64,000 nt of DNA from Gemmatimonadaceae bacterium (GTDB lineage: Bacteria; Gemmatimonadota; Gemmatimonadetes; Gemmatimonadales; Gemmatimonadaceae): the NCBI GenBank assembly GCA_045803545.1, contig JBJMOW010000005.1, forward strand, positions 608,001 to 672,000, in the 5' to 3' direction. A program made the translations under genes and the position numbers. This document shows positions 29,700-36,665 of this stretch, piece by piece. The first letter of the stretch is position 1. Every line of letters begins with the position of its first letter. The notes beneath the pieces are model-generated. The model saw only the letters and a list, made by a program, of their open reading frames with translations, searched no databases and was not told the origin of the DNA.

Positions 29700-29734
29700 A
29701 AAAAACCCCGCACCATCATCGGTGCGGGGTTTTT
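29700..29734. terminator. Bidirectional intrinsic terminator
   Basis: AAAAAACCCCGCACC-ATCATC-GGTGCGGGGTTTTT. Confidence 0.85.
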
Positions 29735-29746
29735 GGTAAGCCCGCT

Positions 29747-32722
29747 CTACTTCCGCGACTTCGCCTTGAGCTCCTCGAACCAGTTGTCGACGACGATTAG
29801 CTCGTCTGGGGCGCTGCCAGCAACCCGACGAATCATGATGAATCGGCGGTCGTCCGGCGCGATCGCATACTGTGCTCCATTCGGCCAGGAGAAGTATGCT
29901 GCGGCAGGAAAAAGAGCCGTTGAGCGTCCTAGCGAAAATGTCGGACCAGATTTCACCTTGACGGATATCAAGCTGCCCGCAACGTCACGGTAGAACAGCT
30001 CTTTACCGTTGTGGGACCAAAGCGGCTCGGTGCCTCCGCCAGTCGAGACAGCCCACTTTGCGGCGGCAGTCTTCGGGAACGGCACGACGTAGACATCGTA
30101 CTGACCGGACTCGTTCGATGTATACGCAAGCCACCGTCCGTCCGGAGAAATCGCCGGAGCAAATTCGCTGAACTTGGTCGCCAGCAGCGGAACGGCAGCG
30201 GTGTCGATTCCAGGTCGGAATCCGAGAATGTCTGCGTGTTCAATCCCACCTCTTCGGAAGACAAGCCATTTTCCGTCGGGAGACCAGCGCGGACTGTAAG
30301 CGCCGCGCTTTTCGCGTATTTGCAGCACCGCTTGCGTGCTGCCGTCAGCGCGCTTCGTCCACAGATCGAACGAGCCTGCCGCATTCGAAGTGAACGTCAC
30401 TGATTTGCCGTCTGGTGTCCACGCGGTGTAACGGTCCGACTTTTCTTCGAGCGTCAACTTGGTGCTCGGCCCGCGATCCAGCTGCTTTATCCAGATGTCA
30501 TTTCTTTGGGCGATAACGTCGTAGCCGAAGTTGGGTAGCAATGAGACCGCGAGCCGCCTGCCATCTGGCGCCACCGAGGGATCACCAAAAGTGCCCTGCC
30601 AATCGCCATCGATCGGTTGCGCCTTACCATCGCGCGCAACCCAGACGAGCTCCTGTTTCACTGTTCCTGCGCCGCGAGTGTAGACAAGCGTACCCTCGTC
30701 TGAGACGGCAAGATCGACGGCCGACGAAGGGGTCAGGCGAACACCTTCGACAAGTGACGTAGGCTCTCCAGTGACCTTCATAGCGTTCTGATCGAACGGC
30801 ACTACCATCAGCGTTCTATCCGTCGTCACGTAGAGCAGGTGACCGGTTCGGACATATCGCGCGTAAACAGCGTTGTTCACAATCGTACGGCGCTTCCGCG
30901 AAGACACATCAACAACGCCGATGGACCTGGCTGCGCCTCTCACACCAACCGCGATCAGAATGCCTTTGCCATTTGGCAAAACCTCCGGCCAGGAGTGATC
31001 GAGCTCCGCCAACGCTGTGTCCAACGTCGTGAACCGCTCCGGCACTGCGCCGGCTTTTGCCTCAACACGAATGAGAGGCTCCGCGTCCCTGCCATCGATG
31101 TAGATGTATCCGTCTCGCCCCCAGGATGCGCCTGCCAATCCGATGAGCGAGTCTGTCACGGTGATTAGCGGACCTCCACTCAGGGACGCGATCTGAAGCT
31201 TGCTGCCGCCGGTGACGAAGCCCACCCGCTGCCCATCGGGGGAGAAAAATGGAGTCTGCGCCCCTTCGCTTCCTGGTACTGCGGTGGCGTGCAACTCATT
31301 TCGCTGACGCACCAGAAGCTGCGCATGCGGGCCGCCGACGTACGCCAGACGCGATCCGTCAGGTGAGAGCGTCAGTCGTCCCCAGAAATACCCAATGGGT
31401 TGAATCAGCGCTTCGGTAGAGTCGAACACGTAGCTGTATCTCACCACCTGCTTCGCAGGGGCAGGATGCATCCAACCCCAGACGAGCGTCGCAGCTAAGA
31501 GAATTGCGACCGCGGTCACACCATAGAGGATCTGGCGCAGGCGGGTCGACCGATCTTGCCCGACAACTTTCGCTGGAGCGCTTGACGACAGGAATGCACG
31601 TCGACGCTGATTGGTGGGCGGTCGTGGCGCCTCGGGCATCACGCTCGCGACGACAGGCCGGTCTGGATCGGTGGTTCCGTCGGCGAGCGTCCGGGTTCGG
31701 GCGAGGTCGCCCAGCAGTTCCGCTGCATCCCCGTAACGCTCGGCGGGCTCCTTCTCCAGCAGCCGCACTACAACGCCGTCGAGCGCCGCGGAAATGTCGC
31801 CCCGATACATCGATGGAAGTGGGGGCTCGTCGTGAAGAATCGCGTGCGCAATCGCGACCTCCTCGTCCCCACTGAATGGCTTACGTCCTGTGAGCATCTC
31901 GTAGAGCACTACACCGAGCGCCCACAGGTCTGAACGTCCATCGACTTTCACACCTCGCATTTGCTCCGGCGACATATACGACGCGGTCCCGAAGCGAACG
32001 CCGGCTTCGCTCAGACTCTGATCCCGCGCTTTGGCCAAACCAAAGTCGAGGATCCGTACCGTTCCGTCTGGCAGCAGCATTACGTTGCCCGGCTTCAAGT
32101 CACGGTGCACGATTCCGGAGGCGTGTGCGGCGTGCAGCCCTTCTGCGATCTGCCGCGCGATCTCCAGAGCCTCGCCCACGACAATAGGACCGTCACGACT
32201 AAGCCGCGCTCGGAGCGTTTCGCCCTGATACAGCGGCATGGCCAGGAAGAGCCAGCCCTCGTCGCTCGTCCCCACTTCGTGGATGGTGCAAAGATTCGGA
32301 TGGTCGAGTGCAGCAGCCGCGTGAGCCTCGCGGAGGAACCGCGCGTTGGCGGAGGCGTCGAGGTTGTAGTGAGGAAAGAGAAACTTCAGTGCAACGACGC
32401 GCCCCAGGCGCGTGTCGTATGCACGATAGACAACGCCCATTCCTCCGGCGCCGAGCGCTTCGCGTAGGTCGAAGTGGGAGATGGTCCGTCCGGTGAGTCG
32501 AAGCGGATCCGACCCGCGATCAGACTCAAGCATGAAAGCAGTGTCAATCAGCCGAAGATCCACGCCGGCGGCAGCGTCGGCCTTCAACAACGATTCAAGG
32601 GCTCGATGTAGACCGGGGTCACTCGTCGCCAACATCCCCAGACGGGCCGCTCGGCCGCTCGCGTTCAGCTCGACGAGCTCGTCGAAGCCGGCCTGGATTT
32701 CCTCCCAGCGCTGAGCGTTCAC
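29747..32722 (-). CDS. Hanks-type Ser/Thr kinase with TM and PD40/TolB-like propeller repeats
   Basis: LGAGGMGVVY, VALKFL, HRDLKPGN, DFGLAK, YMSPE, TM segment, repeated SPDG motifs. Confidence 0.96.
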   Translation of the reverse strand: MNAQRWEEIQAGFDELVELNASGRAARLGMLATSDPGLHRALESLLKADAAAGVDLRLIDTAFMLESDRGSDPLRLTGRTISHFDLREALGAGGMGVVYRAYDTRLGRVVALKFLFPHYNLDASANARFLREAHAAAALDHPNLCTIHEVGTSDEGWLFLAMPLYQGETLRARLSRDGPIVVGEALEIARQIAEGLHAAHASGIVHRDLKPGNVMLLPDGTVRILDFGLAKARDQSLSEAGVRFGTASYMSPEQMRGVKVDGRSDLWALGVVLYEMLTGRKPFSGDEEVAIAHAILHDEPPLPSMYRGDISAALDGVVVRLLEKEPAERYGDAAELLGDLARTRTLADGTTDPDRPVVASVMPEAPRPPTNQRRRAFLSSSAPAKVVGQDRSTRLRQILYGVTAVAILLAATLVWGWMHPAPAKQVVRYSYVFDSTEALIQPIGYFWGRLTLSPDGSRLAYVGGPHAQLLVRQRNELHATAVPGSEGAQTPFFSPDGQRVGFVTGGSKLQIASLSGGPLITVTDSLIGLAGASWGRDGYIYIDGRDAEPLIRVEAKAGAVPERFTTLDTALAELDHSWPEVLPNGKGILIAVGVRGAARSIGVVDVSSRKRRTIVNNAVYARYVRTGHLLYVTTDRTLMVVPFDQNAMKVTGEPTSLVEGVRLTPSSAVDLAVSDEGTLVYTRGAGTVKQELVWVARDGKAQPIDGDWQGTFGDPSVAPDGRRLAVSLLPNFGYDVIAQRNDIWIKQLDRGPSTKLTLEEKSDRYTAWTPDGKSVTFTSNAAGSFDLWTKRADGSTQAVLQIREKRGAYSPRWSPDGKWLVFRRGGIEHADILGFRPGIDTAAVPLLATKFSEFAPAISPDGRWLAYTSNESGQYDVYVVPFPKTAAAKWAVSTGGGTEPLWSHNGKELFYRDVAGSLISVKVKSGPTFSLGRSTALFPAAAYFSWPNGAQYAIAPDDRRFIMIRRVAGSAPDELIVVDNWFEELKAKSRK

Positions 32723-33294
32723 TCGAGCGATTCACCATTGAGGTCGAGCGCAAGCCACGCTCGAGCGGAGCGGAGCTCGCGCTTGGCGGTTGCGAGCGAC
32801 ACTCCTACTGCGGTAGCGCTTTCTTCGAGAGTCAAGCCGCCAAAATAGCGGTGTTGCAGCAATTGGCCCTGGCGGGGGCTCAATCCCTCGAGGCGCTTTA
32901 GCGCATCATCCAGCTCCTTGACCGTCTCCAGGTTTTCGTCGGAGATCCATTCGAACTCGTCGAGGTCCAATGGTCTCATGCCGCCTCCACGTTTTTCGGC
33001 GAGGCGGGCGCGGGCCCGGTCGACTAGCAGATTCCGCATGACTTCGGATGCCAGCGCCAGGAAATGGGCGCGGTCGGGGAGGTCGACGCGGGGAGCGCCA
33101 ACGAGGCGGAGGTAAGCCTCATGCACCAGCTCGGTGGTGTTTAGCGAGCTCTCAACAGGCGCGCCCCACAACCGTCGGTGCGCGAGCTCGCGCAGCCGGT
33201 CGTATAGGAGCGGGATGAGGCGATCGCGAGCTCTGTCGTCTCCGGCGCTCCATTGTCGCAGGAGACCCGTGACCTCATATGAGGCAGATGCCAT
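32719..33294 (-). CDS. ECF sigma factor of the STK-associated type
   Basis: ATG at 33294 after AGGAG; VTGLLRQW...LNTTELVHEAYLRL...MRNLLVDRAR...KRGGG...RYFGGLT...ARAWL; ATGA-type 4-nt overlap with the kinase start. Confidence 0.93.
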   Translation of the reverse strand: MASASYEVTGLLRQWSAGDDRARDRLIPLLYDRLRELAHRRLWGAPVESSLNTTELVHEAYLRLVGAPRVDLPDRAHFLALASEVMRNLLVDRARARLAEKRGGGMRPLDLDEFEWISDENLETVKELDDALKRLEGLSPRQGQLLQHRYFGGLTLEESATAVGVSLATAKRELRSARAWLALDLNGESLE

Positions 33295-33433
33295 CGGTTT
33301 CTCCTGATGAGGCAACGGCAACCCACGATAAGGGTCGGAGGTCCCCCCGGCAAGCGGAATGAGCCGGTTCGACCGACGATTCCGTTCTAGGGGTGAGGAA
33401 AGACCAGCTCGCAATCCCGCATCCGGAGTCCCT

Positions 33434-36207: not shown

Positions 36208-36501
36208 TCAGAAGTTCTTATTCGGAGGGATCTGAGCAACCTCTCTTTCGCGCTCAGCGAGTAGCTTGGTCGTGAAGCGCTGGCCCTCCGAAAGCCGTTC
36301 TACCTCAATGGCAATCGCATCCACGGCGTGCTGGAGTTGTCCGAGTCCATCGTGGATCTCTTTCAGGCCCGGATGTGGGACAGCCGTTCCGCTCGCTCCT
36401 CGCATGTACATCTTGATGAGACTGTACGCGCTGCCACAAACGATGGCGACGATAACAACGGTTGTGACAGCTGGCACCCACAAGTCTGGTGACATAAGCA
36501 C
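36208..36501 (-). CDS. Small single-TM protein with AVDAIAIEVERLSEGQRFTT motif
   Basis: GGGAGG RBS; TM segment; motif shared with 22257-22907. Confidence 0.8.
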   Translation of the reverse strand: MLMSPDLWVPAVTTVVIVAIVCGSAYSLIKMYMRGASGTAVPHPGLKEIHDGLGQLQHAVDAIAIEVERLSEGQRFTTKLLAEREREVAQIPPNKNF

Positions 36502-36543
36502 CCTCCCAAACGAGCACTACGGCCGCGTGAGAGCGAAAGTGCC

Positions 36544-36576
36544 AAACCCCGCGAGCGCCTAAACGCTCACGGGGTT
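36544..36576 (-). terminator. Hairpin/terminator after tRNA-Ile
   Basis: AACCCCGTGAGCG-TTTAGG-CGCTCGCGGGGTTT. Confidence 0.7.
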
Positions 36577-36591
36577 ATGAATTGAGGTTTA

Positions 36592-36665
36592 TGGGCCTGG
36601 GTAGAGTTGAACTACCGACCTCACGCTTATCAGGCGTGCGCTCTAACCACCTGAGCTACAGGCCC
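36592..36665 (-). tRNA. tRNA-Ile(GAT)
   Basis: GGGCCTG acceptor stem, anticodon arm CACGC-CTGATAA-GCGTG, GTTCAAC T-loop. Confidence 0.96.

Follow-up and report, generated by a model that had tools for sequence, protein, structure and literature searches.

Small integrase-less units in tandem at a tRNA-Ile gene of a Gemmatimonadaceae bacterium, probably decayed remnants of serially integrated islands

In a 64,000-nucleotide stretch of a Gemmatimonadaceae genome (assembly GCA_045803545.1, contig JBJMOW010000005.1, positions 608,001 to 672,000; hereafter the window), an intact tRNA-Ile(GAT) gene is followed on the minus strand by two displaced copies of its own 3' half, each with a hairpin behind it and with small genes in between. 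A sequence-only reading of the window had proposed that self-contained cassettes were captured here one after another by a recombinase acting in trans, in the manner of an integron, or else that the array was a tandem of heavily eroded islands. We describe the array, compare it with the same locus in related genomes and argue that its units are probably decayed remnants of islands.

Layout of the array

The array occupies about 7 kb between two backbone genes. Its features are given below from the tRNA side outward; 'arm pair' denotes a tandem repeat, considered further on, that is likely an integrase arm-type site.

36862-37278, plus strand: pilin-like gene, proximal backbone flank
36592-36665, minus strand: intact tRNA-Ile(GAT), integration target (ARAGORN)
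36546-36575, minus strand: hairpin 1, left end of unit 1, no left arm pair
36208-36495, minus strand: small gene for a membrane/coiled-coil protein of 95 aa, without Pfam hit; cargo that moved horizontally
36184-36224, minus strand: surviving 40 bp of a right end designated class B, the remainder gone at 36223/36224 (alignment with four relatives)
36139-36183, minus strand: tRNA-Ile 3'-half copy 1, 42/44
36096-36125, minus strand: hairpin 2, left end of unit 2, stem imperfect, no arm pair
35318-35944, minus strand: TetR-family regulator (PF00440), unit 2 cargo
34794-35321, minus strand: cupin (PF07883), unit 2 cargo
34720-34764, minus strand: tRNA-Ile 3'-half copy 2, 36/44
34674-34704, minus strand: hairpin 3, like left ends of units in relatives, truncated right after the stem
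34087-34659 and 33434-34018, plus strand: two genes for predicted lipoproteins (signal peptide with terminal Cys), likely the cargo of a third unit in a more eroded state
32719-33294, minus strand: extracytoplasmic function (ECF) sigma factor
29747-32722, minus strand: Ser/Thr kinase with beta-propeller
29698-29737, no strand: bidirectional terminator after dinB, backbone, outer limit of the variable region
29117-29677, plus strand: dinB-family gene, distal backbone flank

The tRNA-Ile(GAT) gene is the single gene of its kind in the whole assembly. Its half copies form a direct-repeat family (D2) of 45-nt copies, the first 96% identical to the tRNA copy and the second 82% identical to the first, spaced 452 and 1,419 bp; these distances are units 1 and 2, earlier estimated at about 0.4 and 1.3 kb. 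The scores in the list refer to the last 44 nt of the tRNA, and both copies have a C>G change at tRNA position 66. The ACCCCG stems begin 16, 14 and 16 nt past the three tRNA ends on the minus strand, within the 12-16 nt first reported. Of the eight matches to the pattern ACCCCG-N4-30-CGGGGT in the 3.70-Mb genome, four fall within these 7 kb; the remainder of the window has none, and its other terminators do not use this stem. The tRNA, copies, hairpins and genes of the sequence-only reading are thus all present as described, with two corrections. Four hairpins had been counted as unit markers: three do follow tRNA ends, but the fourth (29698-29737) has no tRNA half before it and is the terminator of the backbone dinB gene, a similar hairpin following the dinB stop in three of the six relatives printed (G014, G115, G044). 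The tentative outer boundary near 29700 was therefore correctly placed, for another reason than the one supposed. Second, identity to the tRNA does drop with distance in this window, but an age gradient fails as a general rule: along the array of G043 the copies match 44, 42, 40 and 43 of 44 positions, and one named record holds five exact copies of the tRNA half within 18 kb.

As had been noted, the array has no recombinase gene. No match to PF00589 was found anywhere in the window, and no integrase or integrase stump was detected in the array by PF00589, tblastn or a profile of related integrases, the profile search covering 27-40 kb. Transfer genes and a functional integrase were absent among the genes of the window units, as were phage structural or replication genes among those of the window. 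A simple attC-like pattern (RYYYAAC...GTTRRRY, 30-120 nt spacing) gave no match on either strand of 29600-36700.

A genus-wide hotspot with integrase-bearing elements

Backbone genes, pilin/tRNA-Ile on one side and dinB on the other, enclose the stretch, whose content is variable. In relatives the tRNA is flanked by pilin and typA, and in G014, G044 and G115 the far boundary of the region is formed by dinB/PAS. The tRNA-Ile site is a hotspot throughout the genus. Several tRNA-Ile halves occur in many of 40 relatives, with seven on one 25-kb contig of G038 and seven on one contig of G090, and the named records with an identical tRNA half are mostly Gemmatimonadota. When the tRNA-Ile loci of relatives were compared, their content varied between genomes and the half-plus-hairpin junctions were kept. 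The serial accretion at the tRNA first proposed is supported as well.

Full elements occur at this site in relatives. A tyrosine integrase of about 400 aa, convergent to the tRNA or half and placed just past the hairpin, was found at five loci (L003, L013, L021, L024, L077), preceded upstream in L013 by an HTH_17 gene resembling an excisionase; the integrases in relatives score above the PF00589 cut-off and have TGHR, HSxRRxF, GGW and Y motifs. Elements of at least 2 kb with their own tyrosine integrase were found in G014, G015, G026 and G032; the window units are not of this kind. Distinct loci with an intact tRNA-Ile and 1.5 kb or more of downstream sequence number 74; the integrase is intact in four of them, a stump in four and absent in 66. 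An integrase query matched 39 of 109 genus genomes, G000 (the genome of the window) not among them, in a tally that takes in unpublished genomes, many partial or distant matches and paralogs at other tRNAs. The supposition that the units relied on an integrase not their own is supported, and the stumps indicate that units derive from integrase-bearing elements.

Forty-one units bounded by two marks were collected from 18 genus genomes, a set that favours short units (fetches of up to 20 kb) and partly class B right ends (loci picked by one end type); their median length is 2,647 bp, nine measure 1.5 kb or less, none has an intact integrase and seven have a stump. Unit cargo, judged from 96 proteins chosen by hand, is ordinary accessory material: hydrolases, peptidases, regulators, kinases and toxin-antitoxin-like pairs. 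At L032 (G012) and L068 (G043), short dinB C-terminal pieces lie beside lipoprotein or ECF-kinase modules, which suggests that backbone sequence was carried along with cargo.

Repeats at the ends of elements and units

In all five integrase-bearing elements a tandem TGTCNRTT pair lies 57-76 nt past the tRNA end, and in all four with a fetched right end a pair of the same variant lies 122-124 nt before the distal half. Position and covariation make these pairs likely integrase arm-type sites. Across the genus, unpublished genomes left out, right ends have a pair in 53 of 68 cases and left ends in 28 of 91. Its offset is nearly constant (-123 or -144 on the right; most often +74 to +77 on the left). 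The TGTCNRTT motif sets these counts too low, other repeat types occurring at some ends. By chance the pair pattern matches 25 times in the 3.70-Mb own genome; the window has no match, and other direct-repeat types at its unit ends scored at best 6-7 of 9, equal to background.

The two ends are not kept equally. Of the 41 units, 22 have the right pair only, 11 both, seven neither and one the left only (right kept in 33, left in 12); among 33 units at loci fetched on the tRNA half alone, one 273-bp gene-less unit being set aside, the corresponding numbers are 13, four, 15 and one. The unit set aside (L156) has a single arm pair between two tRNA halves, is the product expected from a deletion between left and right pairs and resembles the microCIMEs discussed below.

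The units with both pairs bear on the idea of an integron-like system, in which an integrase supplied in trans would take up and rearrange discrete small cassettes with two intact ends. Their sizes include 678, 1,242 and 1,291 bp, the same cargo is met at different positions in different species, and the integrase-query matches in 39 of the genus genomes, many of them partial or distant, also count in its favour. However, in several both-arm units the two repeat variants come from unlike types of element, the left-arm ends (a set that includes intact elements) run on into the integrase C-terminus in 16 of 31 cases, and left ends differ from genome to genome for the same cargo. The window units, for their part, have no arms and no attC-like pattern, and no close integrase was found in the genome. 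We consider this explanation quite improbable.

Right ends have a sharp edge, at which many unrelated cargoes are joined: over 41 distinct class B and 30 distinct class A ends, three of the aligned rows being from unpublished genomes, homology is lost within 2-3 nt of the outer repeat. One may ask whether the module at the right end, made up of a repeat pair, a spacer of 100-125 bp and a tRNA half, is a portable handle, joined to new genes at a precise edge and making them mobilisable. In both classes, conservation is about 0.9 on the inner side of the outer repeat and has dropped to background 3 nt beyond it, and in four metagenome runs many contigs leave a class B end at L071 2392-2393 into unrelated sequence; in G043 such modules are also met at places other than tRNA-Ile, and in both orientations. 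Against this, some class B ends share upstream a leftover kinase 3' end of variable length, as expected from a deletion in a parent, long turnover combined with selection to keep the arm site working can likewise sharpen an edge, and the dispersed copies sit in other islands and may have been carried there. As an explanation of the array, a portable handle appears unlikely to us. The halves of G043 away from the tRNA-Ile gene, most with arm pairs, are at C4:177869, C4:377520, C12:283692 and C15:16874-33897; those on C15 are in both orientations, and one dispersed half ends an island that begins at tRNA-Pro(TGG).

Decay and horizontal spread of the window's units

The small membrane gene of unit 1 is 91-93% identical in G002, G041, G043 and G044, each time ahead of a tRNA half. 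In all four relatives the right repeat pair follows its stop; the window lacks about 129 bp including this pair, a deletion that changed the last residues of the gene. On its other side, the left hairpin is fused directly to the upstream region of the gene. The left end of this block differs in each of the four genomes in which it is assembled (G000, G041, G043, G044), which speaks against the self-contained, intact cassettes initially envisaged, and its position changes from first in G000 to second in G043 and second-last before dinB in G044.

Fourfold sites of the membrane gene differ at 11 of 45 positions versus 176 of 312 in typA for G000-G043, at 9 of 45 versus 178 of 318 for G000-G002, and at 2 of 49 versus 104 of 339 for G043-G002. 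As these sites differ far less than in typA, horizontal transfer of the gene is indicated. The membrane cargo and its right end are 95-97% identical among four species, with typA at 91% in the one such pair measured and at 81% to G000, and the fusion of hairpin to gene seen in the window recurs on a contig from a separate study, with 36 differences over 398 nt. Both observations tell against pure decay, in which every unit would be the vertical remnant of an independent full-size island, with no movement after integrase loss. The integrase stumps in many left ends, the arm loss in the window and the lack of evidence for current excision fit such a history, and transfer inside full-size parents ahead of decay may also account for the similarity; even so, we regard it as very improbable.

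Unit 2 has no repeat pair at either end; its right arm region is absent, since the cupin stop lies only about 30 nt from tRNA half copy 2. The TetR-cupin pair was considered as a recurring cassette and discarded, the pair not being bounded by tRNA halves in G009, G120 and G021. The lipoprotein-ECF-kinase block likely constitutes a third unit that has lost its right end, because hairpin 3 resembles left ends elsewhere and the kinase end usually has an arm pair in relatives: such a pair lies 26-67 nt beyond the match in eight of nine distinct matches to the kinase 3' end, two of the nine being from unpublished genomes (G051, G117), and nothing comparable follows the kinase in the window. A homolog of a window lipoprotein sits inside a bounded unit in L005. 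The units of the window have thus lost the end repeats seen in every integrase-bearing element examined, and, with integrase genes or stumps at the same position in relatives, eroded tandem islands, the alternative offered at the outset, are the best fit here.

Search for a helper integrase in the same genome

A tyrosine recombinase unlinked to the array had been suggested as a possible agent. In the own genome (3.70 Mb, 93% complete, six contigs), two protein queries and the profile of related integrases detected no close homolog. The distant matches of the profile were the integrase of a tRNA-Pro element (E 3e-9) and a 521-aa open reading frame (ORF) at a tRNA-Ser (E 7e-4), for which a helper role is at most conceivable. 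The latter (C6:482411-483976, minus strand) is a divergent tyrosine-recombinase-like ORF, missed by PF00589, beside tRNA-Ser(GGA) and followed by HNH-like and phage-like genes. An integron-integrase-like gene is present on another contig (C2:659 kb).

Other tRNA-associated features of this genome were recorded in passing. At C6:284923-286297, tRNA-Met(CAT), a 1.33-kb unit and a tRNA 3' copy, with no integrase called, make up a both-arm mini-island at another tRNA; a different repeat pair, of 12-bp period, stands at both its ends, and the genome has only two such pairs. Two tRNA-Pro(GGG) 3' halves, 3 kb apart at C4:1001932-1005074 and about 400 kb from the nearest matching tRNA gene, adjoin a restriction-modification-like cluster. 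In the window itself, eight tRNA genes are clustered at 8118-9132 (minus strand), and a thioredoxin-like/TPR gene at 37275-37790 (minus strand) has an upstream frame that ends in TGA just ahead of the called start, a selenocysteine codon or a split gene being possible.

A phage helper was looked for with the integrase query, which gave no viral contig in a single-protein scan that reaches close relatives only. One viral contig has the tRNA half, with neither arm pair nor detectable integrase in the 12.6 kb covered. Phage structural and replication genes were absent among the scanned proteins of two intact elements from relatives.

Discussion

The reading we favour, and hold to be probably correct, is that the units are decayed remnants of islands integrated serially into the tRNA gene, which probably spread as passengers of intact elements and are now predicted to be immobile. 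We take the locus for a variant of a type of system already described and not for a series of intact cassettes in the manner of an integron. As a first step, an element with the approximately 400-aa integrase and the helix-turn-helix excisionase-like gene would integrate at the anticodon region, supplying a new tRNA 3' half and terminator hairpin and displacing the old half; the anatomy is that seen in relatives, and the reaction is modelled on known tRNA-gene (tDNA) islands. Internal deletions would then take the integrase and often the adjoining left arm pair, so that hairpin, right end and adjacent cargo stay; stumps attest to such losses, and the order given here is our reconstruction. A later element integrating in front could excise from its own left end to the right end of the passenger, carry the passenger along and afterwards leave alone, as the model of cis-mobilisable elements (CIMEs), the right-arm bias and the horizontal spread would suggest. 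Since passenger excision would need only the right arm of the passenger, this scheme predicts both the right-arm bias and the integrase-less units found directly behind intact tRNAs. In G000 the right arms have also been deleted, and as the arms are lost the units are predicted to be immobile and the array frozen.

Several observations weigh against this account. Binding of the integrase to the repeats is inferred from position. The scanned proteins of two intact elements yielded no match to relaxase, conjugation or capsid families, and none of the few complete integrase-bearing elements was found to end in either of the two common types of right end, class A and class B. No excised circles or empty-site joints were found in the contigs of the public runs X1-X3 at a depth of about 4, a weak test on contigs only. 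The unit counts carry the bias towards short units and class B ends described above. The right-end edge is sharper than random deletion predicts, and in G043 some of the tRNA halves that have arms are located far from tRNA-Ile; these last two points keep the portable handle alive. That in this genus a 170-190-bp module (arm pair plus tRNA-Ile half) serves as a gene-capture handle, spreading to other islands and making one-ended cassettes for passing integrase elements, is a speculative possibility to which we give a minor share of belief.

Our literature search, made mostly outside subscription journals, found no paper on such arrays in Gemmatimonadota. CIMEs and microCIMEs of Streptococcus lack an integrase, lie in tandem at their target gene's 3' end, are derived by deletion and keep att sites; CIMEs measure 1.2-13 kb and gene-less microCIMEs 130-220 bp, and both are moved in cis by an adjacent integrating element (PMC5704250, PMC7563491). 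The window units are like them in having no integrase or transfer genes, in their tandem arrangement at a tRNA 3' end and in their direct repeats as bounds. They differ in keeping the core repeats but no arm-like pair at either end, and are thus decayed beyond the definition. The parents here show only integrase and excisionase-like genes, with no conjugation or mobilisation family found in the proteins of two elements, and the arrays have more units (up to seven halves in about 20 kb), mostly with the right arm only.

Islands and tandem arrays in tDNA, as catalogued by Islander, combine an intact tRNA, a displaced 3' fragment, an anticodon-type crossover and a tyrosine integrase (PMC4383910). 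The window shares the intact tRNA and the fragment in direct orientation, but Islander demands an integrase per island and at least 2 kb (PMC4383910), and would filter out units of the present kind. The ssrA islands of Dehalococcoides are also in tandem and bounded by repeats of the target 3' end, and 15 without an integration module have been proposed to be cis-mobilisable; they differ in their transfer-messenger RNA (tmRNA) target, serine recombinase and 20-bp repeat (PMC3146451). Tycheposons of Prochlorococcus use tRNAs as integration sites, displace earlier arrivals outward and leave behind partial tRNAs together with fragmented integrases (bioRxiv 10.1101/2020.12.28.424599); they often carry replication genes, whereas the units here have none and keep defined end repeats. 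A further island is marked by recurring tRNA-Lys 3' repeats (PMC10872708).

An integron is an array of small exchangeable gene blocks, and in this the present array resembles one. It differs in that no intI is adjacent, the recombination core is a tRNA half and the blocks do not keep both ends.

Taken alone, the window locus is of modest interest, being a dead remnant. Across the genus, by contrast, there is what such arrays usually lack: a candidate integrase family, candidate arm sites whose positions are fixed, and natural substrates in which both arm pairs, one or none are present, so that cis- versus trans-mobilisation of minimal islands is directly testable. If the module did prove to be a portable handle, this would be integron-like gene traffic built on a tRNA, with the window as a spent example. 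As an island finder of the Islander type would not retain such units, accessory-gene traffic by this route in uncultured Gemmatimonadota may be under-counted.

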